Assembly (NCBI GenBank): GCA_017983435.1
Contig: JAGOBM010000001.1
Span: forward strand, 111,916-175,915
DNA from: Candidatus Moraniibacteriota bacterium
Lineage (GTDB): Bacteria > Patescibacteriota > Minisyncoccia > Moranbacterales > UBA1568
Length of the DNA: 64,000 bases
Reading direction: 5' to 3'
Below, one piece after another: positions 6,833-40,988 of the stretch (positions are counted from its first letter, which is position 1; each line of letters begins with the position of its first letter). The position numbers and the translations under genes are program-made. The notes beneath the pieces were generated by a model. That model was not told the DNA's origin. It made no database searches and saw only the letters and a list, made by a program, of their open reading frames with translations.

Positions 6833-6916
6833 GGAGGAGCTGCAAGACGATTTTTCCTTCACTATCGCCTCGGAAGTCTCGGGCATCAGGAAAAACCGTC
6901 TTGCAGTTCCTCGGAG
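6833..6916 (-). repeat. F1 hairpin repeat element copy 2 (reverse orientation)
   Basis: gagctgcaagacgatttttcc-[ttcactatcgcctcggaagtctcgggcatca]-ggaaaaaccgtcttgcagttcctc; core is the reverse complement of the copy 1 core. Confidence 0.8.
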
Positions 6917-6956
6917 ACACTTAGAAAAAAAAAGCGTTCAATAGTCGATGTCTCTT

Positions 6957-7040
6957 CTGGGCCACGAAAGCAAATTTTCCTCTCGCTAGCGGTTTAAAGC
7001 ACCCTGGGGCTAAGGAAAACTTCTTTCGCGTCCCAGGAGA
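6957..7040 (-). repeat. F1 hairpin repeat element copy 3 (variant-2 core, reverse orientation)
   Basis: ctgggccacgaaagcaaattttcc-[tctcgctagcggtttaaagcaccctggggct]-aaggaaaacttctttcgcgtcccaggagag. Confidence 0.8.
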
Positions 7041-8397: not shown

Positions 8398-8488
8398 CTC
8401 TCCTGGGACGTGAAAGAAGTTTTCCCTGCTGCCCGAGGTGCTTTAAACCGATAGCGAGGGGAAAATTTGCTTTCGTGACCCAGGAGAG
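8398..8488 (+). repeat. F1 hairpin repeat element copy 4 (variant-2 core)
   Basis: ctcctgggacgtgaaagaag-ttttcc-[ctgctgcccgaggtgctttaaaccgatagcgagg]-ggaaaatttgctttcgtgacccaggagag. Confidence 0.8.
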
Positions 8489-8552
8489 ATCTAGATAAAT
8501 AAACAAACAATCTTTTTCGCAGCCCGGGAGATGAGCCGCTCAAGGGGGATAT

Positions 8553-9019: not shown

Positions 9020-10276
9020 ATGCCGAAGACACCCTGGACCGAAAAGATGGATATCACAGTCTGGCGCCAGGATACGGCGCTTCTGCCTGAGCTGCCTGGC
9101 GTCTATTTTTTCTTGGACGCGGAGGGAGGGATACTCTATATCGGCAAGGCGACATCGCTCCGGGATCGGGTACGGAGCTATTTCTCGCAGGACATCATGG
9201 AGACGCGCGGGCCGAAAATCAGTCTGATGCTTGAGCGGGCCGAGACGATCGCCTATCGGGTCACCGACTCGGTGCTCGAAGCACTCTTGCTCGAGTCGCG
9301 GCTGATCAAGGAGCATCAGCCGGTCTACAATACCGACGAGAAAGACGATAAGAGCTTCAATCATGTCGTGGTAACAGACGAAGAGTTTCCTCGGATCCTC
9401 ATCGTGCGCGGCCGCGATTTCGCTCAGGGGAAATTCCGCGATCCGGTCCGGAAGATATTCGGACCGTTTCCGGCGGGGACGCAGCTGCGTGAGGTGATGA
9501 AGATCGTCCGGCGCATCTTTCCGTTCCGGGATACGTGCATTCCTGGATCCGGGAAGCCGTGCTTCCAGGCGCAGATCGGATTGTGTCCGGGTGTGTGTGC
9601 GGGGAGTATCGGGGCACCGGAATATCGTAAGCGGATCCGCGACATCGAACTTTTTTTCGAAGGCAAGAAATCATTGCTCAAGAGAGGCATGGAGCGCGCG
9701 ATGAAGGAGGCGGCGAAGGATTTGCGTTTCGAAGAGGCGGATCGGATGAAACGTCAGCTGTTTGCCGTGTCGCATATCCAGGATATGACGCTCGTGAAGG
9801 ATGATCTCCGGGAACTCAGGCTGCACCGCATCGAAGCGTATGATGTCGCACATCTCGGTGGAGAGGAGACGGTCGGGGTGATGACGGTCATCGAGCGCGG
9901 CCGACTGAACAAGGATGAGTATCGGCAGTTCGTCCTGCGCGGCGAGCATGGAGGCAATGATCTCTCCGCTCTGGAAGAAGTGCTGACGCGCCGACTCGGG
10001 CATCCGGAATGGAAGCTACCGGAAATCATCATCGTCGACGGCGCGCTGCTCCAGTACGGTGTGGCAGAGCGCGTGCTGGCACAGGCCGGACTCTCGATAC
10101 CGGTGCTCGGCGTGGTCAAAAATGCCCGGCATCATCCGGACCATCTCATCGGACCGGAGGGGCTGCGGCGGCGTTTCGAAGCGGACGCACTTCTGGTCAA
10201 TGCCGAGGCGCATCGTTTCGCTGTGGCTTTGCACCGGAAGCGGAAGCGAAAGACATTTCTCGAGTCGGGCACCTGA
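9020..10276 (+). CDS. uvrC: excinuclease ABC subunit C, short form lacking the C-terminal (HhH)2 domain
   Basis: 418 aa; N-terminal GIY-YIG (PGVYFFLDAEGGILYIGKATSLRDRVRSYF), central UVR domain, RNase H-like endonuclease domain (RIEAYDVAHLGGEETVGV); nothing after ~residue 418. Confidence 0.8.
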   Translation: MPKTPWTEKMDITVWRQDTALLPELPGVYFFLDAEGGILYIGKATSLRDRVRSYFSQDIMETRGPKISLMLERAETIAYRVTDSVLEALLLESRLIKEHQPVYNTDEKDDKSFNHVVVTDEEFPRILIVRGRDFAQGKFRDPVRKIFGPFPAGTQLREVMKIVRRIFPFRDTCIPGSGKPCFQAQIGLCPGVCAGSIGAPEYRKRIRDIELFFEGKKSLLKRGMERAMKEAAKDLRFEEADRMKRQLFAVSHIQDMTLVKDDLRELRLHRIEAYDVAHLGGEETVGVMTVIERGRLNKDEYRQFVLRGEHGGNDLSALEEVLTRRLGHPEWKLPEIIIVDGALLQYGVAERVLAQAGLSIPVLGVVKNARHHPDHLIGPEGLRRRFEADALLVNAEAHRFAVALHRKRKRKTFLESGT

Positions 10277-10356: not shown

Positions 10357-10683
10357 ATGAGATGGTTTTTCAGGGGAGTTCTTTGTGGGATAGGCGTCAT
10401 GGCAGTGTGGTACGGATTCGGTTTCGGATTCCTCCATGGTGCTATAGCCCTTTGCTTATCGGTGGCGGCTTTTGGTCTGCTTCTCAAGTGGCAGCGTCGG
10501 GATGCTTTGCTCCGAGAAGCGGTAGAGTGGGCCAATAGACGCCAGAAGACGGCGTTTATCGAGCAGCGAAATCGATGCGAGTCGGAACTCCGGCGTATCT
10601 TCCAGACACTGCGGGATCGCTATGGGATGTCCATCGAGGATGCCCGACAACATATCAGAGAGATGCGCCAAGCGCGTCGCTAG
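10357..10683 (+). CDS. small membrane protein (hypothetical)
   Basis: [43 protein letters not shown], two TM helices then a basic tail; strong SD aaaggagg 8 nt upstream. The longer ORF-track start 10009 overlaps uvrC and was rejected. Confidence 0.45.
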
Positions 10684-10712
10684 CCGGTACTTCAAGTACC
10701 GGCTTTTTCCTT
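10683..10712 (+). terminator. intrinsic terminator
   Basis: agccggtac-ttcaa-gtaccggct followed by tttttcc. Confidence 0.6.
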
Positions 10713-10796
10713 CCGTATTTACAGCGCGTAGGAAAGGCGATACAATGGAAAAACTGTGTATCGATTTTTTTTGTTGAACGTGGCTTTGTAAGGGGT

Positions 10797-13604
10797 ATGC
10801 CAGAAAGAAAACCGGTCATCGAAGTGCGTGGCGCTCGGGTGAACAACCTGAAGAATATCAATGTCGACATACCGCGGGATTCGCTCGTGGTAGTGACTGG
10901 TCTGTCCGGATCAGGCAAGTCATCGCTCGCTTTCGACGTCATCTTCGCAGAAGCGAATCGACGCTATGTCGAATCGCTTTCTTCATACGCGCGCAATTTT
11001 CTTGAAGGGTTCGAGAAGCCGGATGTCGATGCTATCAACAATCTTTCGCCGGCGATTTCCATCGACCAGAAGAGCGTGTCGCGCAGCCCTCGCTCCACGG
11101 TCGGCACGATGACCGAAGTCTATGATTTCCTTCGGGTGCTCTTCGCCAAGGCCGGAGAGCCGCATTGTCCGTCGTGTGGCAAGGCGCTTCTGCGGATGAC
11201 GGTGCGGCAGGTGATGGAAGAATTACTTTTGCTCCCTGATCGGATTGGCATTGTTCTTCTGGCGCACAGCAGCCAGACAGATGGCAAGCCGGAACGGGCA
11301 GCAATCGAGATGATCGATCACTGGGGGTATGTCCGGGTGCGGCGTGACGGCGAGGTGGTGCCGATCGCTGATGCGCTCGCGCTGGCTTCAACGACGGAAG
11401 AGAAACGTATCGATATCGTCATCGACCGCATCGTCATCGACCGGGCCCGTCCCGACAAGGAGCGCATCCTGGATTCTTTGGCGACGGGATTCCAGGTCGG
11501 TCAGGGGACGCTTTCGGTGGCAGTCAATGGGAGCGGAGAGGAGCGTGTCTACAATGACGAGTATCGCTGCGATGACTGTCAGGTCCGCCTTTCGGAGCCG
11601 ACCCCGAGTTTTTTCTCGTTCAATAATCCTGATGGAGCCTGTCCGAAATGCACCGGTCTCGGACGCACGCTTGAATTCGATCCTGACCTGATCATTCCGA
11701 ATCGCAACCTCTCACTGATCGAGGGGGCGATCCGCCCGTGGAGCAAGATGAACGGTGAGCGACAGCGCGAGAGCGGGCCGATGCAGGAGCTGGCCCAGCT
11801 CGCCAAGCGGTCGCATTTTTCCTGTTCAGTCCCGGTCAAGAAGCTGTCGGCCAAGCAGATGAAAGCGGTGCTCTGGGGAGAAGATGGCTGGCAGGAGGAT
11901 TCACGGAAATTCCGCGGCGTCATCGCGCTGCTCTCGGAAAAATACCGGGAGACGAAATCCGATCATCTGCGGCAGGAAATAGAGACGTTTATGCAGTCGC
12001 ATATCTGTCCGGCCTGCCAGGGGAAACGACTCAAGCCGTCATCGCTCTCGGTCAGCGTGCTTGGATATTCGATATTCGATCTGGCTGATATGAGCGCGGA
12101 GCGACTTTCGGCGATCACCAAAGAACTCAAGGCCGGTATCGTCAAGGCCGGTCACGAGAAGACCGTAATCGATACGCTGTTCCGTGAGATGGAGACGCGT
12201 CTTTTGGCGGTCGAGAAGGTCGGTCTCGGATATCTCTCACTCTCGCGGGGTGCTGATACGCTCTCAGGCGGCGAGGCACAGCGTATCCGTCTGTCCGTGC
12301 AGATGAAGTCCGGCCTCTCGGGTATCATCTATGTACTCGATGAGCCGTCAGTCGGATTGCACAGCCGCGATACGGACCGGTTGATCGGCGCATTGCTTGA
12401 TCTCAAGAGTGCCAACAATTCTCTGATCGTCGTCGAGCATGATGTCGCGATCATGCGTCAGGCGGATTACATCATCGACCTCGGACCGGGCGCCGGTACG
12501 GAGGGCGGTGAGGTGATTTTTGCGGGGACACCGGAGAGGCTTCTGAAATCCAAGACGCTGACGGGGGAATATCTTTCGGGTAAGCGGAAAGTGTCCGACA
12601 AGAAGAAGGCACGGCGCTGGAACGGGGAGAGTCTCACGGTGGTCGGCGCGAAGGAGCATAATCTCCGAGATATCGATGTCGAGATCCCTCTCGGTATGCT
12701 CGTGTCCATAGCGGGCGTATCCGGATCAGGCAAGTCATCGCTCGTCCATGACATCCTCTCGCGGGCGCTCTCGAAACATTTCTATCATGCCAAGACCGAG
12801 CCGGGGGCACACAAGAAGATCGTCGGACTCGAGAATATTGATAAGGTGATCACAGTGAATCAGGATCCGATCGGTCGGACACCCCGATCCAACGCGGCGA
12901 CCTACACTGGCGTCTTCAGTCTCATCCGCGATGTCTTCGCGGCGACTTCGGAAGCGGAGAAAGAGCGTTTTTCGGCGACGCACTTCAGCTTCAATATGAA
13001 GGGCGGCCGGTGCGAAGCCTGCCAGGGCGGCGGTTTGCGCAAGATCGAAATGTATCTCTTGCCGGATGTCTATGTACCCTGCGAAGTCTGCGGGGGGACC
13101 CGATACAATATCAAGACGTTGGCCGTCGAATATCGCGGGACGAATATCTCGCAGGTACTCCGGATGACCGTGTCGGAGGCGCGACATTTCTTCCTCGATC
13201 AGCCGCATATCGAAGAGAAGTTGCGGGTGCTCGAAGAAGTCGGTCTCGGCTATCTCGTGCTTGGGCAGAGTGCGACGAATCTCTCGGGCGGCGAGGCACA
13301 GCGTATCAAACTGGCGACCGAGCTGGCGCGCAAGTCGACCGGCAAGACGCTCTATATCCTCGATGAGCCAACTATCGGATTGCACTTCGAGGATGTGCGG
13401 CGATTGCTCGAAGTGCTTGAAGCGCTGGTCGATCGGGGCAATAGTGTGCTGGTCGTGGAGCACAATGTCGATGTCATCCGCGCTTCGGATTGGGTCATCG
13501 AGCTCGGTCCGGATGGCGGCGAGAAGGGCGGCGAACTGATTTTCTCCGGCGAGCCTACCAAACTCAAGGCCTGCAAGCGGAGCGCAACCGCGAAATATCT
13601 GTAA
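10797..13604 (+). CDS. uvrA: second UvrA paralog (excinuclease ABC subunit A family)
   Basis: 935 aa from ATG 10797 ([61 protein letters not shown]...); duplicated ABC modules and Zn fingers; aagggg SD; ORF-track N-terminal extension to 10575 rejected. Confidence 0.85.
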
Positions 13605-13635
13605 GAAATCCATAGTTCAGACGAATAAGAGGGGG

Positions 13636-13722
13636 GCGCTCCGGGAAACGCAAGAGTTTTCCCTGATGCCCGAGACTTCTGAGGCGATAGTGAAGGGAAG
13701 ACTCTTGCGTTTCCCGGAGTGT
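13636..13722 (+). repeat. F1 hairpin repeat element copy 5
   Basis: ctccgggaaacgcaagag-ttttcc-[ctgatgcccgagacttctgaggcgatagtgaagg]-gaag-actcttgcgtttcccggag; perfect 18-bp outer stem. Confidence 0.85.
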
Positions 13723-13778
13723 CCTCAATAGACAAAACATTGCGGTATTTGAAATTTGAGCTTTGATTTTTTACCAGT

Positions 13779-24654: not shown

Positions 24655-24752
24655 GACGTCTCTCGGGGGACGGAAGTAAATTTTTTCCTCACTATCGGCT
24701 TAAAGCGCCTCGGGCATCAGAAAAAATCTCTTTCGCACCCCCGAGAGACAGA
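24655..24752 (-). repeat. F1 hairpin repeat element copy 6 (hybrid core, reverse orientation)
   Basis: gacgtctctcgggggacggaag-taaattttttcc-[tcactatcggcttaaagcgcctcgggcatcag]-aaaaaatctctttcgcacccccgagagac. Confidence 0.8.
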
Positions 24753-24852
24753 CTAAAAACTTCGGCATCATTCTTAAAAAGTGGACTCTCTTCTTATATG
24801 GATATCAGCGGGGGCGTACTGAATATTTTCTTCGTGTAAGGTGAAGGGGGTA

Positions 24853-24930
24853 GCTGGGGTGGAAAGAAGGTTTTCCTTGCCCCAGGGCTTCTGGGACGAT
24901 AGCGAGGGAAAGTCTTCTTTTCACCCCAGC
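24853..24930 (+). repeat. F1 hairpin repeat element copy 7
   Basis: gctggggtggaaagaag-gttttcc-[ttgccccagggcttctgggacgatagcgagg]-gaaag-tcttcttttcaccccagc. Confidence 0.8.
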
Positions 24931-25787: not shown

Positions 25788-27029
25788 ATGCAGAAACAGA
25801 AGAACCTATCCGGAACAGCATCGACGGTCCCATTGGCGGAGCGCATGCGCCCTCAGTCAGCCGATACCTATCTCGGCCAGGAAAAGATTTTTGGCGAGGG
25901 GTCATTCTTGCGCGAGGCGGTACGGAACGGCGCGATTCCTTCGCTCTTGTTCTGGGGGCCTCCGGGGAGCGGCAAGACGACGCTGGCTCGTATCCTCTCG
26001 CGCGAGCTGTTGGCGGAATTCATCCAGCTGTCGGCGGTCGAGAGCGGCAAGAAAGATCTGACCGCCGTACTCGATCGCGCAAAAGCGAATCGGGAGCAGG
26101 GGAAGCGGACGATACTCTTTCTTGATGAGATCCATCGTTGGAACAAGGCACAGCAGGATGCGCTCCTGCCGTTTGTCGAGTCAGGGGTCTTGACCTTGAT
26201 CGGCGCGACGACGGAGAATCCGAGTTTTTCAGTCAACGCAGCGCTCTTGTCTCGGACCAGGGTGCTGGTGCTGTCCGCGCTTCCGCCACAGGCGATAGAA
26301 GCGTTGCTTGAGCGGGCGATCCATGAGGATGAGTTGCTCATTGCAGCCGGTATCGATGTTGAGACGGGGGTGACAGGATTCTTGGCGGAAGCGGCGGGCG
26401 GCGATGCCCGGCAGGCACTCTCAGCTCTCGAGGCCTGTGCACTGCGGACACCGCATATCACGCTTGTGCTGGCAGAGGAAGTCATGCAGCGTTCACACCT
26501 GCTCTATGACAAAGATGGCGAGTGGCACTACGATGTCATTTCCGCGCTGCACAAATCGATGCGGGGCGGCGATGCGGACGGAGCGCTCTATTGGCTGGGC
26601 CGGATGCTCGAGGCAGGGGAGGACCCTCTCTTTGTCGCGCGCCGCCTGATCCGCTTCGCATCGGAAGATGTCGGATTGGCCAATTCATTCGCACTGCCGC
26701 AGGCCGTAGCGGCTTACGAGGCCTGTCAGCGTATCGGGATGCCGGAATGCGAGCTCAATCTGGCACAGGCAGTCGTCTATCTGGCGAAGTCGAAGAAATC
26801 CAATGCTCTCTATGTGGCGTATGGCCGGGTGAAGGAAGATATCCGGAAATTCCCCAATGAACCCGTGCCGCTTCACCTTCGTAACGCACCGACGAAACTC
26901 ATGCAGGGACTCGGGTACGGAACGGATTACAAATATACGCCGGACTATGCGACTCCGGAGGCCGCATGTCAGACCTACCTGCCGGAACGGCTGAAAGACC
27001 GGAAATACCTGGAATTCAAGGGGGATTGA
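25788..27029 (+). CDS. rarA: replication-associated recombination protein A (AAA+ ATPase RarA/MgsA)
   Basis: LLFWGPPGSGKTTLARIL Walker A, LFLDEIHRWNKAQQDALLPFVE Walker B/sensor, MgsA C-terminal domain. Confidence 0.85.
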   Translation: MQKQKNLSGTASTVPLAERMRPQSADTYLGQEKIFGEGSFLREAVRNGAIPSLLFWGPPGSGKTTLARILSRELLAEFIQLSAVESGKKDLTAVLDRAKANREQGKRTILFLDEIHRWNKAQQDALLPFVESGVLTLIGATTENPSFSVNAALLSRTRVLVLSALPPQAIEALLERAIHEDELLIAAGIDVETGVTGFLAEAAGGDARQALSALEACALRTPHITLVLAEEVMQRSHLLYDKDGEWHYDVISALHKSMRGGDADGALYWLGRMLEAGEDPLFVARRLIRFASEDVGLANSFALPQAVAAYEACQRIGMPECELNLAQAVVYLAKSKKSNALYVAYGRVKEDIRKFPNEPVPLHLRNAPTKLMQGLGYGTDYKYTPDYATPEAACQTYLPERLKDRKYLEFKGD

Positions 27030-28259: not shown

Positions 28260-28289
28260 AGCGAAATATATCGATGGTTTTTTTATCCT

Positions 28290-28515
28290 CCCTAAAAGCC
28301 CTTTCGTACCGCACTTCCGATCGACCGTTTTCCGGTATCACGCCGACAAAATTTCCTGTGCCACTACGTACACTCGGGAGTCAGGAAATTTTCTTGCGGC
28401 GCTTATACCGGAAACGGTTCCCGATCTGGAAGCGACATGGTCCGAAAAAGCTTTCAGTGGAGGATTTCTTGTAATTCATACTTTTTGAAGTGCGGTTCGA
28501 AAGGGTTTTCCGATA
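28290..28515. repeat. F2 large palindromic repeat element copy a (~225 bp)
   Basis: ccctttcgtaccgcacttc...ccgaccgttttccggtatcacgccgacaaaatttcctgtgcc-[actacgtacactcgggagtca]-ggaaattttcttgcggcgcttataccggaaacgg...gaagtgcggttcgaaaggg; right arm carries a ~55-bp insertion. Confidence 0.75.
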
Positions 28516-28535
28516 GGTTTTTAATATAATCTTTA

Positions 28536-28563
28536 AAATGGCATTATAAAGCCATTTTTTTGT
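28536..28563 (+). terminator. intrinsic terminator
   Basis: aaaatggc-attataaa-gccatttt then tttttg. Confidence 0.6.
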
Positions 28564-28585
28564 TGTTTCGCATGGAAATACCCTG

Positions 28586-28655
28586 TGGTGTTGACCGGGT
28601 ATGTGCTTGTGGAGTAAAATGGGGACACCCTTCATGAAAGTGGTGAAAAGTGGTG
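28586..28655 (+). promoter_or_regulatory. dcw-operon promoter (TTGACC-18-TAAAAT) with four GTGG(T/A)G repeats, candidate MraZ operator
   Basis: TTGACC 28592-28597, TAAAAT 28616-28621; GTGGTG/GTGGAG at 28586, 28610, 28640, 28650 (last two exactly 10 bp apart); MraZ proteins bind spaced GTGG-type direct repeats in their own promoter. Confidence 0.45.
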
Positions 28656-28672
28656 AAAATAAAATCCTGGCT

Positions 28673-29107
28673 ATGTTTATCGGCGAGTATTCTCATTCTA
28701 TCGATCCGAAGAAGCGCTTAGCGCTGCCTTCGAAATTCCGGGGAGAGCTCGGAAGCCGGGTCGTCGTGACGCGTGGACTCGATCATTGTCTCTTCGTCTA
28801 TCCGATGAAGGTATGGGAAGAGATCGCGGCGAAGCTCGGTAGTCTGCCGGTCGGAGAATCAGGGACGCGCAGTTTCATCCGGTTGATGCTTTCGGGTGCG
28901 GTGGATACGGAGCTGGATAGCCAAGGCCGTGTGCTCTTGCCGGAGTATCTCAAGAGCGATGCCGGTCTCAAGAAAGACGTGGCGGTCGTCGGCGTCTACA
29001 ATCGTCTCGAGATCTGGGATGAGGGCGCGTGGAAGAAATACAAGCTGAGCGCGGAGAAGAATACGGGCAAGATCGCGGAGGAGCTCGGTAAGCTCGGCGT
29101 GTACTAG
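28673..29107 (+). CDS. mraZ: transcriptional regulator MraZ
   Basis: MFIGEYSHSIDPKKRLALPSKFR...GRVLLPEYL duplicated MraZ/SpoVT-AbrB motifs; N-terminus aligns with B. subtilis MFMGEYQHTIDAKGR; earlier ATG 28634 rejected as 5' UTR. Confidence 0.85.
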   Translation: MFIGEYSHSIDPKKRLALPSKFRGELGSRVVVTRGLDHCLFVYPMKVWEEIAAKLGSLPVGESGTRSFIRLMLSGAVDTELDSQGRVLLPEYLKSDAGLKKDVAVVGVYNRLEIWDEGAWKKYKLSAEKNTGKIAEELGKLGVY

Positions 29108-29186
29108 GGATACGAAAAGACATTCAAAATTCAAAATATAAATTGAGAGGCAGCGTGCGATTTCTTTTTTGAAGGTTGAATGCATT

Positions 29187-30152
29187 ATGGAAGAGACACA
29201 GCATATTGCGGTATTGGCTCGAGAGGTTCTTGAAGGACTGCACCTTAAGAAAGGCGGAAAAGCGATTGATGCCACGCTCGGCGGCGGCGGTCATACGCTG
29301 CTCATGAAAGCCGCGGTCGGATCGGAGGGAAATATTCTCTCGCTCGATATGGATGTCGAGGCGATCGTTCGTTTCGAAGTGCGAGCAGCAACTGATGCTG
29401 TACTTCAGCAAGAAATGGCAGCCGGCCGGCTCCGAGTCGCTCATGCGAATTTCGCGGAGGTTGCTCGCGTCGCGGAAGAGTCGGATATGACTGCGGTGGA
29501 TGCCGTTTTCGCTGACCTCGGCTACTCTTCGGATCAGATCGACGACGAGTCGAGAGGGTTGTCTTTCATGAAAGACGGTCCGCTCGATATGCGGCTCGAT
29601 CGCCAATCCGAGAAGACAGCGGAGTTTATCGTGAACACTTGGTCTGAGGCGAATCTGACACGACTTTTCTCCGAGGCGGGCGACGAGGAATGTGCGTCGA
29701 GCATCGCGCGGGCGATTGTGAAGCGTCGAGTCGAAAGGACGTTTTCGGGTACGCTCGAGCTCTCGCAGATGATCGAGCGGGCGATACCGGCCCGTATCCG
29801 GGCCAAGCGCAAGACGCATCCCGCGACCAAGGTTTTCCAGGCGCTCCGTATCGCTGTCAACGATGAATTCGGCAGTCTCGAATCGTTCTTGGCGCAGGCG
29901 GTCGCGCTCCTCCATCCGGGCGGAAGGATCGGCATCATCAGTTTCCATTCCGGTGAAGACCGTATCGTGAAGCGGTTTTTCCAAAAAGAGGCCAAAGGCT
30001 GCGAGTGTCCGCCGAATTTCCCGGTCTGTGTCTGCGGAAAAGTGCCGCGGCTCCGGATCATCACCGCTGACCCGGTCGTTCCGGGAGAAACGGAGAAGCT
30101 CGACAATCCTCGGGCCCGGAGCGCGAAGCTCCGTATCGCTGAGAGGATCTGA
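29187..30152 (+). CDS. rsmH: 16S rRNA (cytosine1402-N4)-methyltransferase RsmH
   Basis: IDATLGGGGHT SAM-binding motif and RsmH layout; immediately after mraZ. Confidence 0.85.
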   Translation: MEETQHIAVLAREVLEGLHLKKGGKAIDATLGGGGHTLLMKAAVGSEGNILSLDMDVEAIVRFEVRAATDAVLQQEMAAGRLRVAHANFAEVARVAEESDMTAVDAVFADLGYSSDQIDDESRGLSFMKDGPLDMRLDRQSEKTAEFIVNTWSEANLTRLFSEAGDEECASSIARAIVKRRVERTFSGTLELSQMIERAIPARIRAKRKTHPATKVFQALRIAVNDEFGSLESFLAQAVALLHPGGRIGIISFHSGEDRIVKRFFQKEAKGCECPPNFPVCVCGKVPRLRIITADPVVPGETEKLDNPRARSAKLRIAERI

Positions 30153-30193
30153 AGCCAAAAAGAAGTCAAAACAAAAAAACAAAAATAAATCAT

Positions 30194-30547
30194 ATGCGTA
30201 CTCTCCTCGCGGATTCGCATCACAGGAAAGTCATACCGCTGGCGGTGATCCGTCAGTCTAAGCAGGGATCAATCCGTATCGGGGGGTCCTTCGGTCTGCT
30301 TCTGTTTCTCGTCTTGCTGTCCGGCGGGTATGTCTTTTCGGTGAACAGCAATGCGGTGCAGGGGTATCGGATGCGTCATCTTGAGAAGGAGATAGCGGAA
30401 ATGCAGGAGGAGAATGCTCGATTGCGGATCGTCGAGGCGGATACGAAATCCTTTCGGCGCATTGAGGAAGCGAGCGGGAGTCTTGCACTGGAGCGGGCGG
30501 ATGCCCCCCAATATTTTGAAGAACGTGATATCGTGGCGATACGCTGA
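30194..30547 (+). CDS. ftsL: FtsL-like cell division protein
   Basis: 117 aa bitopic protein with one TM then coiled coil (LEKEIAEMQEENARLRI); position between rsmH and ftsI. Confidence 0.5.
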   Translation: MRTLLADSHHRKVIPLAVIRQSKQGSIRIGGSFGLLLFLVLLSGGYVFSVNSNAVQGYRMRHLEKEIAEMQEENARLRIVEADTKSFRRIEEASGSLALERADAPQYFEERDIVAIR

Positions 30548-30577
30548 TAGTCCGGTGATTACGAGGGAATTTGAATT

Positions 30578-32344
30578 ATGGGACATGCACGGATCCCTCA
30601 GAATCTGAAGCGGAAAGAGGGGCGCGGAGACGAGAAGATCTCACGCGTCGATTTTGTTTTTATCGCTTTCGTGCTCATCAGCATCGTGCTTCTGGTCAAG
30701 CTGTACCGGACTCAGGTGATGCAGCATGCGATGTGGGAGACGCGGGCTGAAGAGCAGCGGCTGGCGACTATCGATATGAAAGCCGAGCGGGGAGAGATAT
30801 TTCTGCACGATACCGATGGTCCTTATCCGCTGGCGGTCAACCGGGAATATCTTCTGGCCTATGTATCGCCGAAGGATGTGACGGAGCCGGAGAAGGTCGC
30901 CCTGGAACTCTCGCGGGCGCTCTCGGTGGATGCGGGGGAGATACTGGCCAAGCTCTCCGATCGCGATGATCCGTTTGAAATAATCAAGCGCAAACTGTCC
31001 GATGATGAGGTGGCGCACGTGCGTGAGCTCAAGCTCGGAGGGGTCGCGCTCTTGTCGGAGAAATATCGCTACTATCCTGCTGATACGCTTGCGTCGCATA
31101 TCGTCGGTTTCTCGAGTCTGAGTGAGCGGGGCGGGGCGGGAGGGTATGGTATCGAAGCGTCTTTCGATGATGCCTTGCGAGGCTTCTCTTCCCGGATGGA
31201 GCAGGAGCGGGATGCTGGTGGACGCTGGATCGCACTCTCCAATACACGCGGCCACGGTCCGAATCATGGTGATAATCTGATCCTGACGATTGATCGGGTG
31301 ATCCAACATGAGACTGAGAAAATCCTCAAGGAAGTGATTGAGAAACACAGCGCAGACTCGGCGACGGCTATCGTTATGGATCCGGAGACCGGCAAGATCC
31401 TCTCGATGGCGACACAACCAGATTTCAACCCGAACGAGTATGCGCAGGCGGAAGATTATAGCGTCTTCCTCAATCCGGCACTGAGTCTGCCGTATGAGCC
31501 GGGCTCGATCATGAAGCCGTTCACGATGGCGATCGGCATCGATGAGAAGAAAGTATCGCCGACCACGGAATATACGGATACGGGAGCCGTGACGGAATCC
31601 GGCTATACGGTGCGGAATTCTGAGGACAAAGTGTATGGTCGGAGCAGTATGACCAAGGTGCTCGAGGATTCTATCAATACGGGCATGATCTTCGTCGAGC
31701 GGCAGGTCGGACACAAAGTGTTCGCGGAGCGGCTGCGGCGTTTCGGCTTCGGAGAGAAGACGGGTATCGATCTGCCGGCGGAGGCAGCGGGCAATCTGCA
31801 TAATCTCGATGATCAGCGTATCGGTATCCAGTTCTATACGGCTGCCTTCGGCCAGGGTATCACGGCGACTCCGCTCCAGATTACGGCGGCGTACGCGGCG
31901 CTGGCCAACGGAGGCATGCTGATGCGGCCGCAGATCGTCGATGCAATCGAATATCCGGATGGGACTCAGGAGGAAGTGAAGCCGGAGGAAGTGCGCCGGG
32001 TCATCAGCAAGGAGACGAGTGCGACGATCGGTCGCATGCTTCGGAGCGTCGTCGTGAACGGGCACGGAAAACGGGCGGATGTGGCCGGGTACGAAGTGGT
32101 CGGCAAGACGGGTACGGCCCAGGTCGCCAAGACCGACGGCAAAGGCTATGAAGAGGGGATAACCATTGGATCGTTTGCGGGGTACGCACCACGAGAGAAC
32201 CCGAAATTCGTCGTGCTAGTCAGGATCGTGAACCCGAAGGATGTGCAGTGGGCCGAATCGAGCGCCGCGCCGGCATTCGGTCAGCTGATGCGGTTTTTGC
32301 TCGAATATGCGAGAATAGAGCCGACAGAGCCGATCAAGCCGTAA
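30578..32344 (+). CDS. ftsI: penicillin-binding protein 2/3 (peptidoglycan D,D-transpeptidase FtsI)
   Basis: 588 aa; N-terminal TM, PBP dimerisation domain, transpeptidase motifs (SxxK in ...PGSIMKPFT, SxN, KTGT in VVGKTGTAQV). Confidence 0.8.
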   Translation: MGHARIPQNLKRKEGRGDEKISRVDFVFIAFVLISIVLLVKLYRTQVMQHAMWETRAEEQRLATIDMKAERGEIFLHDTDGPYPLAVNREYLLAYVSPKDVTEPEKVALELSRALSVDAGEILAKLSDRDDPFEIIKRKLSDDEVAHVRELKLGGVALLSEKYRYYPADTLASHIVGFSSLSERGGAGGYGIEASFDDALRGFSSRMEQERDAGGRWIALSNTRGHGPNHGDNLILTIDRVIQHETEKILKEVIEKHSADSATAIVMDPETGKILSMATQPDFNPNEYAQAEDYSVFLNPALSLPYEPGSIMKPFTMAIGIDEKKVSPTTEYTDTGAVTESGYTVRNSEDKVYGRSSMTKVLEDSINTGMIFVERQVGHKVFAERLRRFGFGEKTGIDLPAEAAGNLHNLDDQRIGIQFYTAAFGQGITATPLQITAAYAALANGGMLMRPQIVDAIEYPDGTQEEVKPEEVRRVISKETSATIGRMLRSVVVNGHGKRADVAGYEVVGKTGTAQVAKTDGKGYEEGITIGSFAGYAPRENPKFVVLVRIVNPKDVQWAESSAAPAFGQLMRFLLEYARIEPTEPIKP

Positions 32345-32357
32345 ACGTACCGAAGAC

Positions 32358-33662
32358 ATGCCGAAACGAATCTTGGAAAACATACTGAAAGCGATGGCGC
32401 AGATACTCCTCCGGAAATACCGGCCTTTGATCGTGGGCATCACCGGATCGGTCGGGAAGAGCTCGACGAAGGAGGCGGTCGGCCTGGTCCTGGCGCGCAA
32501 GTATCGGGTCCGGATGGCGGAAGGGAATTATAACAATGAGATCGGTATTCCCTTGACGATTATCGGCGCGAGAAGCGGCGGGAGATCGATCGTCCGTTGG
32601 GCGGTGGTGTTCTTCCGGTGGTTGTGGGCCGTCGTGTGGCCGTTCCGGTATCCGGAGGTATTGGTACTGGAGATGGGTATCGACCGGCCAGGGGATATGG
32701 AATATTTGCTGTCGTTCGTGCCGGTAGATGTCGGGATATTCACGCAGGTATCTGGTAGTCATACGGCGTATTTCGGTTCGATCGGCAATATCGCCAAGGA
32801 GAAAGGCAGGCTCATCATGAGTTTGCCTGATTCCGGTGTTGCCATCCTGAATGCTGATGATGAACGGGTGATGCGGTATCAGGATAAAACCAAGGCGAAA
32901 GCGGTGACATTTGGTTTCGGGGAAGGAGCCGATGTCCGAGCCGAACATATCGTGCTTGAGCCGGAAGCGAGGCTCGTGAAGGGCATCGCGTTCAAGATGA
33001 ATTATCATGGGAAATCATTGCCGGTCCGCCTCCCGAAAGTCATAGCCCGTCATCATCTGCCGTCCGTCCTCGCGGCTGCCGCTGCGGGCATCGCGCTCAA
33101 GGTGAACCCGGTCGATATCGTCGACGCGCTCGTGGCCTTTGAGCCGCTGCCTGGACGGATGCGTCTTCTGCCGGGAATGCACGGGAGTATCCTGATCGAT
33201 GATACGTACAACGCTTCTCCGCTTTCGACGATGGCGGCACTTGCCGTGCTCGGTGAGTTGGCGGCCAGCAGAAAAGTGGCCGTACTTGGTGATATGTTGG
33301 AGCTGGGTGATGAGGCTCTGGCTCGGCATCGCAGTCTCGCTGACTCGGTGATCAGATCCGGAGCCGAGCAAGTGATTTTGGTCGGTCAGCATATGCGTGC
33401 CCTGTACACGTCTTTGCTCGAACAGGGGAAATCGGTCGAACAGGTATCCTGGTTCGAACGGAGCGATGAGGCAGCGCTGTTCGTAGCCAGCTGTGTTGCG
33501 GAAGGCGATCTGGTACTGGTGAAGGGTTCTCGCGGCATGCGGATGGAATGGGTGTCTGAAAAACTCTTATTCGATCCATCCGAGGCTTCGTCTTTCCTCT
33601 GCTGTCAGTCGCCTGATTGGCGCGGGCGTCCCTTCATTCCGCCGACAGAGTGGATGGATTGA
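32358..33662 (+). CDS. murF: UDP-N-acetylmuramoyl-tripeptide--D-alanyl-D-alanine ligase MurF
   Basis: Mur ligase P-loop ITGSVGKSSTKE and Mur ligase middle/C-terminal domains; 434 aa. Confidence 0.75.
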   Translation: MPKRILENILKAMAQILLRKYRPLIVGITGSVGKSSTKEAVGLVLARKYRVRMAEGNYNNEIGIPLTIIGARSGGRSIVRWAVVFFRWLWAVVWPFRYPEVLVLEMGIDRPGDMEYLLSFVPVDVGIFTQVSGSHTAYFGSIGNIAKEKGRLIMSLPDSGVAILNADDERVMRYQDKTKAKAVTFGFGEGADVRAEHIVLEPEARLVKGIAFKMNYHGKSLPVRLPKVIARHHLPSVLAAAAAGIALKVNPVDIVDALVAFEPLPGRMRLLPGMHGSILIDDTYNASPLSTMAALAVLGELAASRKVAVLGDMLELGDEALARHRSLADSVIRSGAEQVILVGQHMRALYTSLLEQGKSVEQVSWFERSDEAALFVASCVAEGDLVLVKGSRGMRMEWVSEKLLFDPSEASSFLCCQSPDWRGRPFIPPTEWMD

Positions 33663-33717
33663 AAGCAAGCGGAGATGATAGGGAGACTGCGGACGTAATT
33701 TTTTTCGGAATGCTGAT

Positions 33718-34638
33718 ATGGATTTTTTTTCGATAGTGCTTATTGTTGTCGGTCTTTCGCTGTTTGAAGCGGTATCAAGTATCGACAATGCCATTATCAA
33801 TGCCGATGTCCTCTCGACGATGGGAGCGAAGGCGCGGCGATTTTTTATCACGTGGGGAATATTGATCGCGGTCTTCCTGGTCCGGGGTCTGCTGCCCTGG
33901 GTGATCGTGTGGGCGACGGTGCCGAGTCTTGGATTCTTCGGATCATTTACGGCGATGTTCTCCAATGATCCGAATGTACATACGGCGATCGCGGCGGCGG
34001 CACCGGTCCTCCTCATGGGCGGCGGTATATTCCTCTTGTTCCTCTTCCTGCACTGGATTTTCCTGGAAGACAAATGTATCGGATTTCATTGCGAGCGTTT
34101 CGTATCCCGTCACGGGGTCTGGTTCTACGCGGCTGTCTCGGTGATCCTGATGACGATCGTCTGGTACGCGCTCAAGCAGGATCCGATGGTGGCTTTTGGC
34201 GCCGTGGTAGGCTCGACGGCCTTTTTCATCATGCATGGGTTCCGTCTACAAGCGGAGAAAGCCGAAGAAAACCTCAAGGGGTCACATCTATCTGATTGGA
34301 GCAAGGTGCTCTTCCTTGAAGTCATCGACTTATCGTTCTCGATTGATGGCGTGCTCGGAGCCTTTGCATTTACTATGTCGGTCCCATTGATCCTGGTCGG
34401 CAACGGCATCGGCGCTATCGTCGTCCGGCAGCTTACGGTGATGAATATCGAACGGGTGAAGCGCTATGTCTATCTCAAGAACGGAGCCATGTATTCCATC
34501 CTGCTGCTCGGAAGTGTCATGGTTCTGGAAGGATTTAAGATCCATGTCCCCGAGTGGCTGGCTCCGGTGGCGACCATCGCTATCATCTGGTATTTCTTCG
34601 ACCGTTCGAAGCGGAAAATCCGTCTCTCGGCAAATTGA
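33718..34638 (+). CDS. integral membrane protein (TerC/DUF475-like)
   Basis: 306 aa, ~8 TM; N-terminal LFEAVSSIDNAIINA motif. Confidence 0.4.
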   Translation: MDFFSIVLIVVGLSLFEAVSSIDNAIINADVLSTMGAKARRFFITWGILIAVFLVRGLLPWVIVWATVPSLGFFGSFTAMFSNDPNVHTAIAAAAPVLLMGGGIFLLFLFLHWIFLEDKCIGFHCERFVSRHGVWFYAAVSVILMTIVWYALKQDPMVAFGAVVGSTAFFIMHGFRLQAEKAEENLKGSHLSDWSKVLFLEVIDLSFSIDGVLGAFAFTMSVPLILVGNGIGAIVVRQLTVMNIERVKRYVYLKNGAMYSILLLGSVMVLEGFKIHVPEWLAPVATIAIIWYFFDRSKRKIRLSAN

Positions 34639-34715
34639 CAAACCGGGGGCTCGGGGTACAATACGTGAAGGAGGCGATAGCTTTCCGCTAACGGTTAATC
34701 GGTGAGAGTAAGACT

Positions 34716-35075
34716 ATGACGGACAATATGATGGACAAGGAATTCGTCGAGTATGTCGTGAAGATGCTCGTAGACAATCCCGACGATGTGAAAGTGGAGC
34801 GGAAGATCGATGAGATGGGCGTGCTGATTACGCTCGATGTGAATCCTCAGGATATGGGTATGGTGATCGGACGCGAGGGCATGACGGCCAAAGCGCTTCG
34901 GACACTGCTCCGGGTCATCGGCGCACGCAACAGCGCCCGGGTGAACCTCAAGATCAATGAGCCGGAAGGATCGGAACGCGGTCATCGCGAGCCGCGCGAG
35001 GAGAGGCTGGCGCCGGTCGCGGCTGAACCGGTCAAGCGTTCGCTCGACGATGTGATGAATGATATCCAAGCGTAA
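34716..35075 (+). CDS. KH-domain RNA-binding protein (UPF0109/YlqC-like)
   Basis: VKVERKIDEMGVLITLDVNPQDMGMVIGREGMTAKALRTLL: KH_4 GxxG motif. Confidence 0.7.
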   Translation: MTDNMMDKEFVEYVVKMLVDNPDDVKVERKIDEMGVLITLDVNPQDMGMVIGREGMTAKALRTLLRVIGARNSARVNLKINEPEGSERGHREPREERLAPVAAEPVKRSLDDVMNDIQA

Positions 35076-35088
35076 AAAGATTTTCCAG

Positions 35089-35116
35089 AACCGCTCCACA
35101 AGGGGCGGTTTTTTGT
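35089..35116 (+). terminator. intrinsic terminator
   Basis: aaccgctcc-acaa-ggggcggtt then ttttg. Confidence 0.6.
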
Positions 35117-35130
35117 TTATCACGAATAGC

Positions 35131-35225
35131 GAAAAAATCCCAGACTGCGGAAGAGCTTTTTTTGATGTACTACGCTTCCGAGCGTACAGCAAGAAAAAAA
35201 TCTTCCGCAGTCTGGGATTTTTCAC
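35131..35225 (+). repeat. F3 hairpin repeat element copy a
   Basis: gaaaaaatcccagactgcggaagag-cttttttt-[gatgtactacgcttccgagcgtacagcaag]-aaaaaaa-tcttccgcagtctgggatttttcac; perfect 21-bp outer stem, A-run 5' and T-run 3'. Confidence 0.85.
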
Positions 35226-35235
35226 ATGAGGTAAA

Positions 35236-35420
35236 GAAAAGCAAGGATACTTTCATTTCCTGCACCGTGCTTCCCTCCGACCGTTTCACGACGTTACGCC
35301 GAGAAAATTTCCCGTGTCCCGACGTCTGACTCGGGGTCGGGAAATTTTCTTGCAGCGCTCGTGTCGGAAACGGGACGGATGAAAGCATATAGTGCGAGAA
35401 ACAAAAGTATCCTTGCTTTC
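35236..35420. repeat. F2 large palindromic repeat element copy b (~185 bp)
   Basis: aagcaaggatactttcatttc...ccgaccgtttcacgacgttacgccgagaaaatttcccgtgtcccgacg-[tctgactcgggg]-tcgggaaattttcttgcagcgctcgtgtcggaaacgggacgg...gaaacaaaagtatccttgctt; central ~130 bp is ~80% identical to copy a. Confidence 0.75.
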
Positions 35421-38000: not shown

Positions 38001-38040
38001 GGCGTCCGAGAGTACCGAGTACTCGAGGGCGTCTTTTTTT
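38001..38040 (+). terminator. intrinsic terminator
   Basis: GC-rich palindrome ggcgtccgagagtaccgagtactcgagggcgtc followed by ttttttt. Confidence 0.55.
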
Positions 38041-38044
38041 ATTA

Positions 38045-38219
38045 CCAAACCCTGTCTGCCGACAGGCAGGGAAGCGAGCGAAACGAAAGTGTACTTTCGT
38101 TTTCGATCCGCCAGCTGGCGGACGGTAAAATCGGGTTAAATACCCCGTGGCTTGCCACGGAAAGTAAAACAAGCCGAGGCTTGTTTTAGTGTCCGGAGCT
38201 TGCTCCAGGGTAAATACCC
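38045..38219 (+). other. hairpin-dense non-coding segment (8 consecutive short stem-loops), candidate structured RNA
   Basis: ccctgtctgccgacaggcaggg; cgaaacgaaagtgtactttcgttttcg; ccgccagctggcgg; gggttaaataccc; ccgtggcttgccacgg; aaaacaagccgaggcttgtttt; ggagcttgctcc; gggtaaataccc. No ORF present. Confidence 0.25.
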
Positions 38220-38230
38220 GTTATATATCA

Positions 38231-38336
38231 CAGAAAAAAATCCCAGACTGCAGAAGAGCTTTTTTTGATGCACTACGCTTCCGAGCGTACAGCAAGAAAA
38301 AAATCTTCCGCAGTCTGGGATTTTTTGTGGTGTATG
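38231..38336 (+). repeat. F3 hairpin repeat element copy b
   Basis: cagaaaaaaatcccagactgcagaagag-ctttttttgatgcactacgcttccgagcgtacagcaagaaaaaaa-tcttccgcagtctgggattttttgtgg; 1-2 substitutions vs copy a. Confidence 0.85.
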
Positions 38337-38385: not shown

Positions 38386-38455
38386 AAAGCAGATTTTCCC
38401 CTCACTATCGCCTCGGAAGTCTCGGGTATCATGGAAAACCTCTTCCGCAGCTAAG
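38386..38455 (-). repeat. F1 hairpin repeat element copy 8 (reverse orientation)
   Basis: cttagctacgaaagcagattttcc-[cctcactatcgcctcggaagtctcgggtatcat]-ggaaaacctcttccgcagctaag. Confidence 0.8.
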
Positions 38456-40757: not shown

Positions 40758-40773
40758 GCCCATCTTTTTGGTC

Positions 40774-40858
40774 TTTCTGGTTACGAAAGCAAATTTTTTC
40801 CTCGCTATCGGTTTAAAGCACCTCGGGCAGCAGAAAAAATCTCTTTCGTAACCAGAAA
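40774..40858 (-). repeat. F1 hairpin repeat element copy 9 (variant-2 core, reverse orientation); partial right-arm fragment of a further copy at ~40893-40925
   Basis: tttctggttacgaaagcaaattttttcc-[tcgctatcggtttaaagcacctcgggcagcag]-aaaaaatctctttcgtaaccagaaa; nearby ggaaaaatttgcttgcgtatcccgaaacag resembles the copy 1 right arm. Confidence 0.8.
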
Positions 40859-40988
40859 GCGCCCTTTATTGAGCATGAGTTATACATGAAGTGAGGAAAA
40901 ATTTGCTTGCGTATCCCGAAACAGATCACCAAAATCGATGCTTCTCTAGGAAGCTAGGCAGCTAATGAAGCTAATAAGCTATTAAAAT

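Follow-up and report, generated by a model that had tools for sequence, protein, structure and literature searches.

Several kinds of bacterial DNA have features in common with F2, the element described here. The ERIC/IRU and YPAL elements of Enterobacteriaceae are, like F2, imperfect intergenic palindromes of more than 100 bp, often located in 3' UTRs (PMC3184786 for part of these features), and as in F2 they are non-coding, have a conserved centre and size variants from internal insertions, and are patchy among relatives. Bacterial MITEs (Correia/NEMIS, RUP, Nezha, Chunjie) resemble F2 in being short, non-autonomous and transposase-less, in forming long hairpins between genes and in their insertion polymorphism between strains. 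REP and REPIN sequences likewise are extragenic, hairpin-forming palindromes, possibly handled as single-stranded DNA; REPINs, which are hairpins of ~100 nt made of two inverted units, are mobilised by RAYT (TnpA-REP) transposases. Invertons (fim, hin and Bacteroides-type) are comparable to one of the F2 copies, F2-A, as segments of ~150-300 bp with inverted repeats that take two orientations upstream of an operon. In addition, inverted-repeat flip-flop, or quasi-palindrome template switching, inverts an asymmetric centre and copies arm onto arm, giving paired 'compensatory' changes. The CPR/Patescibacteria have genomes that are regarded as small and streamlined, and our literature search found no description of intergenic palindromic repeats in them.

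The host of F2 is an uncultured, ultra-small member of Candidatus Moranbacteria (CPR), represented by a MAG, from which a stretch of 64 kb was analysed (the window); the homologues of its bcp carry the name Candidatus Moranbacteria. Two copies of F2 are present in the window, and both are palindromes of about 185 bp homologous to each other. F2-A forms a single long imperfect hairpin at 28291-28520 (-95.7 kcal/mol, z -7.7 as RNA; -55.9, z -8.1 as DNA), and F2-B forms another at 35238-35419 (-98.5, z -10.5 as RNA; -56.6, z -9.9 as DNA); none of the shuffled sequences folded as well as either copy. BLAST against the intergenic DNA of the window aligns 28308-28449 with 35264-35401 (143 nt, 73% identity, E 6e-20), with six compensatory pairs between the copies, and the sequences GGAAATTTTCTTGCRGCGCT and ACGCCGASAAAATTTCCYGTG occur at the F2-A and F2-B sites only, even when up to 3 mismatches are permitted (chance expectation 0.02 and 0.00). 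Folds and alignment agree with an earlier note on this DNA, which had located here two palindromes that share a core but not their outer arms. The consensus quoted there needs a slight correction on the left: F2-A reads TCGACCGTTTTCCGG and F2-B reads CCGACCGTTTCACGA.

F2-A, with the whole palindromic region given without strand and the features below on the + strand unless stated, comes after the bcp stop codon (28259) but before the terminator of bcp, with bcp (AhpC-TSA) upstream and mraZ downstream. Its interior unit of 151 nt (28299-28449), as delimited by BLAST, nhmmer and a four-lineage alignment, consists of a left arm L, a GATC-bounded core and a right arm RA1, and its ends are the imperfect inverted repeats CCCTTTCGTACC / GGTCCGAAAAA. 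The core (28319-28426), which is common to F2-A and F2-B, carries an asymmetric apex at 28357-28383. The left arm L (28299-28318, CCCTTTCGTACCGCACTTCC) is an inverted repeat of a solo right arm R (28487-28505), the two matching at 19/20 positions in the window; one partner of the pair is absent in each of the relatives L179, L169 and L201. The diverged right arm RA1 together with CTTTCAGTGGAGGA occupies 28427-28464, where CTTTCAGTGGAGGA is the left flank ATCCTCCCTAAAAG copied in inverted form. It is followed by a 22-nt spacer (TTTCTTGTAATTCATACTTTTT, 28465-28486) that is missing from L201 and L169, and then by R with the outer flank TTTTCCGATAGG (28506-28517). In the reversed alleles of L169 and L201, the right junction is collinear with this last segment (28487-28517), which L179 has lost by deletion. 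The region 28427-28486, described earlier as a ~55-bp insertion in one arm, is more plausibly the element's own diverged right arm plus the spacer, preceding the solo arm. On the 3' side of F2-A there are an intrinsic-terminator-like hairpin (28535-28568), kept in relatives, and the mraZ promoter TTGACC-18-TAAAAT with two GTGGTGAAAA boxes (28591-28659), both kept in all relatives.

F2-B has the KH_KhpA-B gene upstream and the dTDP-sugar isomerase gene (rfbC) downstream, so the gene contexts given in the earlier note are right for both copies. It lies downstream of the terminator of the KH-protein gene (35087-35120), which is also kept in relatives without F2-B, and has its apex at 35313-35339. 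The ends of F2-B form a perfect terminal inverted repeat of 16 bp, from AAAGCAAGGATACTTT (35238-35253) to AAAGTATCCTTGCTTT (35404-35419), while the unit ends of F2-A are imperfect. Such inverted termini are trivial since the entire element is a palindrome, and they differ between F2-A and F2-B: the centre is in common, the ends are not. A hairpin copy of a different family, F3 (35132-35222, no strand assigned), which is 98% identical to a copy at 38235-38325 (family D7), is indeed a neighbour of F2-B but does not directly abut it, as it stops 13-15 nt before.

At orthologous sites, the presence of F2 differs between lineages. F2-A is found in four lineages (the window, L169, L179 and L201) and absent in two (L186 and L181), and its conservation in related genomes sets F2 apart from a mere chance duplicate. 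Three relatives have no F2-B in their KH-rfbC spacer, which measures 89 nt in L169 and 140 nt in L186, and in L196 half an F3 and an F1 copy stand in place of F2-B. The search for further copies of the core, which the earlier note had proposed, found none beyond these two in ~75 kb of this genome (the 64-kb window and an extension of ~11 kb); neither was any phage, plasmid or viral match found. As for insertion ends, the only flanking direct repeats are TA dinucleotides beside F2-B and the L179 copy, which are weak and come without an alignable empty site, and no target-site duplication or defined insertion end was established at either copy.

The comparison among relatives also reveals that the F2-A interior has inverted repeatedly. 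The window and L179/L180 have the unit 28299-28449 in forward orientation, L169 and L201 in reverse. In L169 it matches the opposite strand at 94.8% over 154 nt by BLAST, with nhmmer scores of 192 bits for the opposite strand vs 51; for L201 the scores are 188 vs 44 bits. Per 151 nt, the window differs from L201 at 2 positions, from L179 at 8 and from L169 at 7, and the window and L201 have two derived states in common. The substitutions therefore track the species/gene tree and the orientation does not, which shows that two or more inversions of the interior took place, with identical end points. A clean inversion does not account for all the differences between forward and reverse alleles, as extra rearrangements are present in the flanks. 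The window allele carries inverted copies of both breakpoint flanks, and the L201 allele has a perfect outer stem of 18 bp with three paired double changes relative to the L169 stem. The outer stems thus co-vary between lineages, so every F2-A allele remains a continuous hairpin. Hairpin-specific DNA processes are evident in these inversions and in the arms, which paired changes keep complementary.

Besides its rearrangement, the F2-A interior is far better conserved than expected of neutral DNA. Its identity across lineages is 95-99%, while the flanking genes have just 70-80%; between the window and L169, the interior is 95% identical and third codon positions ~50%. The 3' end of bcp and the spacer are also 91-95% identical between L169 and L179. 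Such conservation of the interior could reflect selection acting on its sequence or, alternatively, recombination between lineages.

The best explanation, to which we give about an even chance, is that F2 is a low-copy, non-autonomous palindromic DNA element, ERIC/MITE-like, that has been rearranged by recombination or template switching between its arms. F2 would then be one of several families of hairpin repeats filling terminator-to-promoter gaps in a Candidatus Moranbacteria clade, a low-copy one made up of long DNA quasi-palindromes (about 165-190 bp), with F2-A and F2-B as old, diverged descendants of a single element. The copies encode nothing and behave as dispensable, non-autonomous DNA, some close relatives having them at the orthologous sites and others not; they probably have no dedicated host function. 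Non-autonomy fits with the absence of any transposase, RAYT (Y1_Tnp) or recombinase domain from the 30 window ORFs searched by Pfam and from the precomputed annotation of locus L166. Repeat behaviour shows in short-k assemblies, whose contigs stop at F1 copies, at F3 copies and at the F2 unit boundary. Their shape may be kept and reworked at the DNA level, where the two arms would interact by intramolecular recombination or replication template switching. Through such arm-to-arm events, as we infer them from the alleles, the asymmetric interior would flip in place and flank sequences would be copied to the opposite side, so that each allele stays one continuous hairpin. New copies would probably arise through a trans-acting enzyme encoded elsewhere, or through recombination. 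Against this reading, the two copies in ~75 kb are only 73% alike and the k=31 contig of the window organism (L168) runs unbranched through F2-A, so there is no sign of recent multiplication; the weak flanking repeats, the conservation of the interior beyond that of neutral DNA and the allele differences other than a clean flip count against it as well.

The window contains about 16 hairpin elements, making up roughly 4% of its 64 kb. The architecture of F2 parallels more than 13 other hairpin repeats of the window, and the earlier note held that F1, F2 and F3 have the same inner module. The architecture (A/T run-CC, apex, GG-A/T run) is indeed common to them, and a short motif CACTA(T)CG..CTCGGGnnTCAGG, seen post hoc, is partly common to the F2 apex and the F1 centres, but homology is not detectable: BLAST of F2 gives no similarity to F1 or F3, and a profile from ten F1 centres scores F2-A at E = 7.9 and F3 at E = 0.93, against E <= 1e-12 for the ten F1 copies. 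The link of F2 to F1 and F3 is architectural only, and one propagating mechanism for the three is a conjecture. A wider form of it would make F1, F2 and F3 a CPR-specific class of palindromic elements, in which an asymmetric module at the apex would be the defining part and the arms would be free and self-templating. These elements might integrate at palindromic flanks or create them, and might flip in place through a hairpin-specific enzyme (HUH-type or another nuclease) encoded elsewhere or, alternatively, through a transposase-independent fold-back and template switch, with the flip of F2-A beside the mraZ promoter being functionally exploited. Taken with all of these parts jointly, this is unlikely.

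The same hairpins could act at the RNA level, as cis-acting structured RNA in a 3' UTR or intergenic region that stabilises the up- or downstream mRNA or targets RNase cleavage, roles established for ERIC and REP. F2-A, which follows the bcp stop codon and precedes the terminator, is probably co-transcribed, and all four lineages and both copies retain the hairpin, with the compensatory pairs and the strong sequence conservation mentioned above; the modulation of mRNA decay by ERIC elements in 3' UTRs (PMC3184786) counts for this possibility as well. However, F2-B follows a terminator and precedes the promoter region of rfbC, and inversion would place the complementary sequence in the transcript. 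G.T-wobble-compatible arm mismatches on the two strands number 5 vs 5 in F2-B and 0 vs 4 in F2-A, with no strand bias in the wobble pairs and no G.U-compatible excess on the sense strand. With L186 and L181 dispensing with F2-A, and with Rfam giving 0 gathering-level matches in the window and only sub-threshold eukaryotic snoRNA/miRNA noise at the F2 loci, we consider a structured RNA quite unlikely.

The inversions raise the question of a programmed switch, in which a recombinase acting at the inverted ends would turn F2-A over between bcp and the mraZ promoter, as in an inverton. At least two independent inversions with identical unit ends, the inverted repeat L/R around the segment in the window allele, the unusual conservation of the interior and its place just upstream of the promoter of a division/cell-wall cluster all speak for it. 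In addition, five Logan contigs from five runs all end at L169 position 10578, which is the unit homology boundary 10549 + 29, meaning that, in those samples, the first 31-mer of the unit occurs in two contexts. Against a switch, every assembly spanning F2-A has one orientation per lineage (five for the window organism, four for the L169 lineage and two for the L179 lineage), and L168, at k=31, is unbranched. No promoter-like site was found inside 28299-28486, and no recombinase domain in the annotated part of the window. The flank rearrangements that accompany the flip, the lack of anything comparable at F2-B and the absence of F2-A from L186 also weigh against it, and a programmed switch therefore seems to us rather improbable, slightly more so than an RNA.

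A palindromic site bound in either orientation by a nucleoid, partition, replication or repressor protein would account for arms and apex being conserved well above the neighbouring genes, for the tolerance of both orientations and for the asymmetric apex motif partly common to F1 centres. It is nevertheless very unlikely, given that F2-A and F2-B are just 73% identical, that the arms contain many bulges and indels, that close relatives lack F2 and that it has no linked candidate for a binding protein; known operator and parS-type sites are far shorter than 150 bp. Finally, a chance or one-off segmental duplication of intergenic DNA, for which there are only the two copies and public pattern scans without a match, is hardly credible in view of the unrelated flanks and different outer arms, the full palindrome in both copies and the architecture paralleled in other repeats, and is contradicted by the L169 inversion and the four-lineage alignment, where F2-A is conserved and rearranged.

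As a palindromic element, F2-A documents the natural evolution of a chromosomal palindrome with unusual clarity, through repeated inversion, flank duplication and arms kept complementary among lineages that are 1-5% apart inside the element. Should the flip turn out to be regulated and to occur at the population level, the cell-division/cell-wall operon would have a switch directly upstream of it, in an organism not yet growable. In practice, hairpin repeats are break points in short-k metagenome assemblies of these organisms.

Among the known systems, ERIC/IRU, of enterobacterial or vibrio hosts, and YPAL differ from F2 in apparently having no sequence similarity to it and in belonging to a different phylum from its CPR host, and the copy number seen for F2 is very low. 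Unlike in ERIC, a TA-flanked terminal inverted repeat plus duplication is not established for F2. We treat F2 as an analogue only; recurrent in-place inversion is, to our knowledge, not a described ERIC property. With MITEs, F2-A and F2-B share presence/absence polymorphism at orthologous sites, but not the many near-identical copies (two at 73% in 64 kb plus about 11 kb), and no parent IS is known; MITE copies have terminal inverted repeats in common and target-site duplications, whereas the F2 copies share the centre and differ at the ends. REPs are 20-40 nt long with conserved stems, a GTAG head, hundreds of copies per genome and a linked RAYT gene, none of which is seen for F2, whose unit is 151-185 nt in two copies within the ~75 kb scanned, with no Y1_Tnp in the annotated window ORFs. 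Flanking inverted repeats like those of invertons are present in the window (L/R 19/20), but there is neither an internal promoter (28299-28486) nor an invertase in the annotated window ORFs, and the whole F2-A segment is itself palindromic. Flip-flop and template switching are a process rather than an element family, and would explain the rearrangements of F2, not its origin or spread. On the whole, F2 has the look of a novel hairpin-repeat DNA family, more than that of any RNA gene or switch already known.

The palindrome between bcp and mraZ (F2-A, 28291-28520) and the related one between the KH-domain gene and rfbC (F2-B, 35238-35419) had been claimed in the earlier note as two long imperfect palindromes, and reading and aligning both loci bears this out. 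Structure prediction, a check suggested there, folds each of them as a long hairpin, a single one in F2-A, with an RNA fold of -95.7 kcal/mol (z = -7.7) and a DNA fold of -55.9 (z = -8.1) for F2-A, and of -98.5 kcal/mol (z = -10.5) and -56.6 (z = -9.9), respectively, for F2-B. The two copies are 73% identical over 143 nt (28308-28449 against 35264-35401, E 6e-20), and at up to 3 mismatches the two best-conserved blocks have window sites only in F2-A and F2-B, with chance expectations of 0.02 and 0.00. The consensus fold of F2-A, its orthologues and F2-B has 59 pairs, 6 of which are preserved via changes on both sides. On the whole, these palindromes are genuine and make up a low-copy family, not described before, of intergenic DNA in a CPR bacterium. 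A generic repeat finder caught just a 41-nt fragment of the F2 likeness (family D14); its direct-repeat families D1-D3 and D6 result from two UvrA-like ABC ATPase paralogues (2945-5521 and 10575-13604) lying 7.6 kb apart; UvrC (9020-10276) separates the two, and UvrB immediately precedes the window (locus L199).

The genes of the window lie almost throughout on the + strand. The longest ORF at 1827-2690 is on the - strand and is probably not a gene; what assemblies call here is a + strand gene of the YdjC family (L199 3986-4675, which is window 1995-2684). F2-A is located downstream of the bcp stop codon (28259), and next come a hairpin resembling a terminator (28535-28568), the conserved promoter of mraZ (28591-28620) and a pair of GTGGTGAAAA boxes. 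F2-B is located downstream of the KH-domain gene's terminator (35087-35120), with a hairpin of the F3 family (35132-35222) between them, and upstream of the rfbC promoter region. Domains of the flanking genes were assigned from Pfam, and no transposase, RAYT or recombinase domain is found in the 30 window ORFs scanned or among the annotations precomputed for locus L166. The best bcp homologues are named Candidatus Moranbacteria or Patescibacteria, and two NCBI MAGs and other assemblies contain contigs identical to the window, which therefore belongs to a CPR bacterium.

Further copies are not met in about 11 kb by which the window's genome was extended (~9.4 kb and ~2 kb), nor in ~200 kb from relatives. 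No F2 is among the at least 118 matches listed in genome contigs for the permissive pattern AAAATTTCCN{22,32}GGAAATTTTCT, which takes in unrelated hairpins and terminators. The metagenome search with the 19-mer GGAAATTTTCTTGCNGCGCT gives 41 chance matches, such as one in coding sequence of L165; this 19-mer is too strict, as a relative's F2 copy reading ...TTTTTTTGC... would escape it, and the negative is thus a weak one. Two pattern scans of viral contigs give chance matches alone, Rfam holds nothing relevant to F2 at the gathering threshold or at E <= 10, and distant BLAST with F2 finds no match in plasmids and phages. The concatenated six-frame translation of F2-A and F2-B, aimed at spurious ORFs called on other copies, has no match in the protein database, and our literature search found no report of such repeats in Patescibacteria.

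Syntenic loci of five further lineages were retrieved via bcp and TerC homologues. The lineage sp1b (L201) has bcp DNA 93.8% identical to the window; sp3 (L179/L180, plus the sp3-like L195/L196) and sp6 (L185-L194) form one clade with the window, with gene DNA identity of 77-93%; sp2 (L169/L170/L176/L177) is the outgroup by gene identity (70-80%, third codon positions being ~50% identical), and sp4 (L181) is more distant. Comparison of the bcp-mraZ and KH-rfbC gaps, also proposed in the earlier note, finds F2-A present in some relatives and missing in others, and F2-B missing in sp2, sp6 and the sp3-like L196. The bcp-mraZ spacer of sp6 is without F2-A, and the mraZ upstream region of sp4 has a terminator and promoter alone. 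In sp4, the stretch of the mraZ 5' leader from the MraZ boxes to the start codon (L181 16780-16885) carries short tandem repeats, GATTGCA x3 as well as ATCTCAAATCTGAA / ATCTCAAATCTAAA. The KH-rfbC spacer is 505 nt long in the window; in sp2 (89 nt) and sp6 (140 nt) it consists of a terminator and promoter region and nothing else, while in the sp3-like L196 (339 nt) half an F3 and a copy of the hairpin family F1 replace F3 and F2-B. Therefore each F2 copy is restricted to certain lineages, and differing hairpin families collect in these gaps. An alignable empty site was sought for F2-A and F2-B among the retrieved relatives and none was found; F2-B and the sp3 F2-A copy can each be bracketed by TA dinucleotides, which is weak evidence for insertion ends or a target-site duplication.

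The interior of F2-A, a 151-nt unit (28299-28449), is found inverted in place. The sp2 locus has a 154-nt segment that matches the window's opposite strand with 94.8% identity, and both its flanks are collinear. The F2 family profile scores the + strand better in the window (201 vs 50 bits) and in sp3 (207 vs 50 bits), and the - strand better in sp2 (192 vs 51 bits) and sp1b (188 vs 44 bits), so that the orientations of the window, sp1b, sp3 and sp2 are forward, reverse, forward and reverse, respectively. Counted after orienting the unit, pairwise differences per 151 nt are 2 between the window and sp1b, 8 between the window and sp3, 7 between the window and sp2, 6 between sp1b and sp3, 5 between sp1b and sp2, and 7 between sp2 and sp3; two derived states are common to the window and sp1b. 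Since substitutions in the interior track species relationships and orientation departs from them, no fewer than two inversions sharing the unit ends are required, one of them very recent.

All alleles fold as a single long hairpin. The reverse alleles (sp1b and sp2) run from the left flank P through Q, the reversed unit and Q' to CTTTTG, with Q complementary to Q'; the outer stem of sp1b, CAAAAGCCTATTTAGAAA / TTTCTAAATAGGCTTTTG, pairs perfectly over 18 bp, and that of sp2 differs from it by three paired double changes. The forward alleles (window and sp3) run from P through the unit to an inverted copy of P. In addition, the window allele retains a solo right arm R (28487-28505) with Q', and this piece (28487-28517) is the reverse allele's right junction, here set behind a 22-nt spacer; it is missing from sp3, with its boundaries falling at short direct repeats, CTTTTTGAA / CTTTAAA, as would be expected for a slippage deletion. 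As read from the aligned alleles, these differences are probably footprints of arm-to-arm events at the DNA level. One route would be recombination between the left arm L (28299-28318) and R, then deletions between the resulting direct repeats; the other would be template switching, or an inversion that duplicated its breakpoints. A simple L/R inversion with deletions covers most of the allele differences, as does a staggered-break inversion, with the 22-nt spacer and the Q segment not exactly covered by either, and neither route accounts for every base of the F2-A alleles.

Across 7.5 kb of synteny, identity between the window and sp2 is mostly 55-80%, and just two islands reach 90%: the F2-A interior, which is more conserved than the adjoining genes and the mraZ promoter, and the region of the TerC end and KH start. 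The high conservation of the interior has two possible readings, namely selection on its sequence, or recombination between lineages, which would be in accordance with other signs of such exchange. These are an identity of 91-95% between sp2 and sp3 across the 3' end of bcp and the spacer, a TerC gene (33718-34638) that is 88% identical between sp2 and sp3 and 79-80% between each and the window, opposite to all other genes, and the confinement of every one of the 33 window-L001 differences to 425 nt of an MgsA/RuvB-like gene (26011-26435). In addition, 34615-34815, including the end of the TerC/DUF475 gene, a 77-nt spacer and the KH-gene start, is 90-99% identical in all lineages and could be a leader or regulatory RNA conserved ahead of the KH gene.

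Assembly breaks bear on the unit as well. Five Logan contigs from five runs all end at L169 coordinate 10578, exactly 29 nt inside the unit, whose homology boundary is at 10549. With the Logan graph taken to have k = 31, this means that the first 31-mer wholly within the unit has two predecessors, and therefore that in those five samples the unit stands in two contexts, be it through a second copy or through a reversed orientation. A k=31 contig of the window's organism, L168, passes through F2-A, showing that there is no second near-identical context in that organism. Short-k contigs also start or end inside F1 and F3 hairpins, at the ends of L168 (window 35198), L199 (window 2853), L195 and L179 and the start of L186; hence these repeats fragment assemblies of this clade.

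The window has at least 10 F1 copies (2816-2902, 6844-6897, 6952-7034, 8412-8504, 13634-13724, 24658-24749, 24850-24930, 38387-38443, 40771-40853 and 58260-58343), in mixed orientations, and 3 F3 copies, the other two being 38235-38325 and 58364-58489. F1, F2 and F3 share a design of variable paired arms, A/T run, CC, asymmetric apex, GG and A/T run, and the F2-A apex contains CACTACG..CTCGGGAGTCAGG, which resembles the F1 centre CACTATCG..CTCGGGCATCAGG. The HMM of the F1 centre does not tie F1 to F2-A (E = 7.9) or to F3 (E = 0.93). Thus, of the suggestion that the inner module of F2 matches F1 and F3, the shared design stands while profile-detectable homology does not, and the common descent of the three families is unproven. 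The F1 pattern is a constant centre with co-varying arms: the centre (~45 nt, ..CC-T-CRCTATCG-N10-CTCGGGCATCAG-G..) is asymmetric and conserved and occurs in both orientations, and the outer arms are copy-specific yet always complementary, for example GGGGTGCG/CGTATCCC vs GGTTACG/CGTAACC. An F1-type solo right arm lies directly 3' of the SHMT stop codon in the window (40885-40919) and in sp6 (L185 ~10070-10095), in the window with a complete F1 ~30 nt upstream; this layout of full element, short spacer and solo arm is that of F2-A and R. Two F3 copies are 98% identical, and the third has its centre inverted and different arms; the half F3 of L196 (1697-1735) is at the site orthologous to 35132. 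A window-specific insert (38040-38230), located between a terminator and the next promoter and missing in sp6, has about six short GC-rich hairpins in a row, including TGTCTGCCGACAGGCAGGG, GAAACGAAAGTGTACTTTCGTTTTC, CCGCCAGCTGGCGG, CCCCGTGGCTTGCCACGG, AAAACAAGCCGAGGCTTGTTTT and GTCCGGAGCTTGCTCCAGGG, and a 98-aa - strand ORF called by assemblies that is probably spurious.

We favour F2 being a DNA-level element rather than an RNA, because G.U-type arm mismatches on the + and - strands number 5 vs 5 in F2-B and 0 vs 4 in F2-A, F2-B is outside any transcription unit, and inversion would alter the transcript. The inversion is preferably read as a by-product of palindrome instability; it might also be a regulated switch, a reading we rank below palindrome instability. 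Less probably, F2-A could act as a 3'-UTR hairpin, a role in which ERIC is known (PMC3184786). An intrinsic terminator was dropped for the separate canonical terminators beside both copies, a small ORF (e.g. 28274-28474) since it is destroyed by inversion and called in no assembly, a tRNA or tmRNA since none is found in the window, and a CRISPR or tandem array since array structure is absent. The most notable trait of F2 is its recurrent in-place inversion together with co-varying arms and a highly conserved 151-nt interior beside the mraZ promoter. Among known systems, hairpin repeats of the ERIC and MITE types are its closest analogues, the likeness being one of behaviour rather than of established membership.
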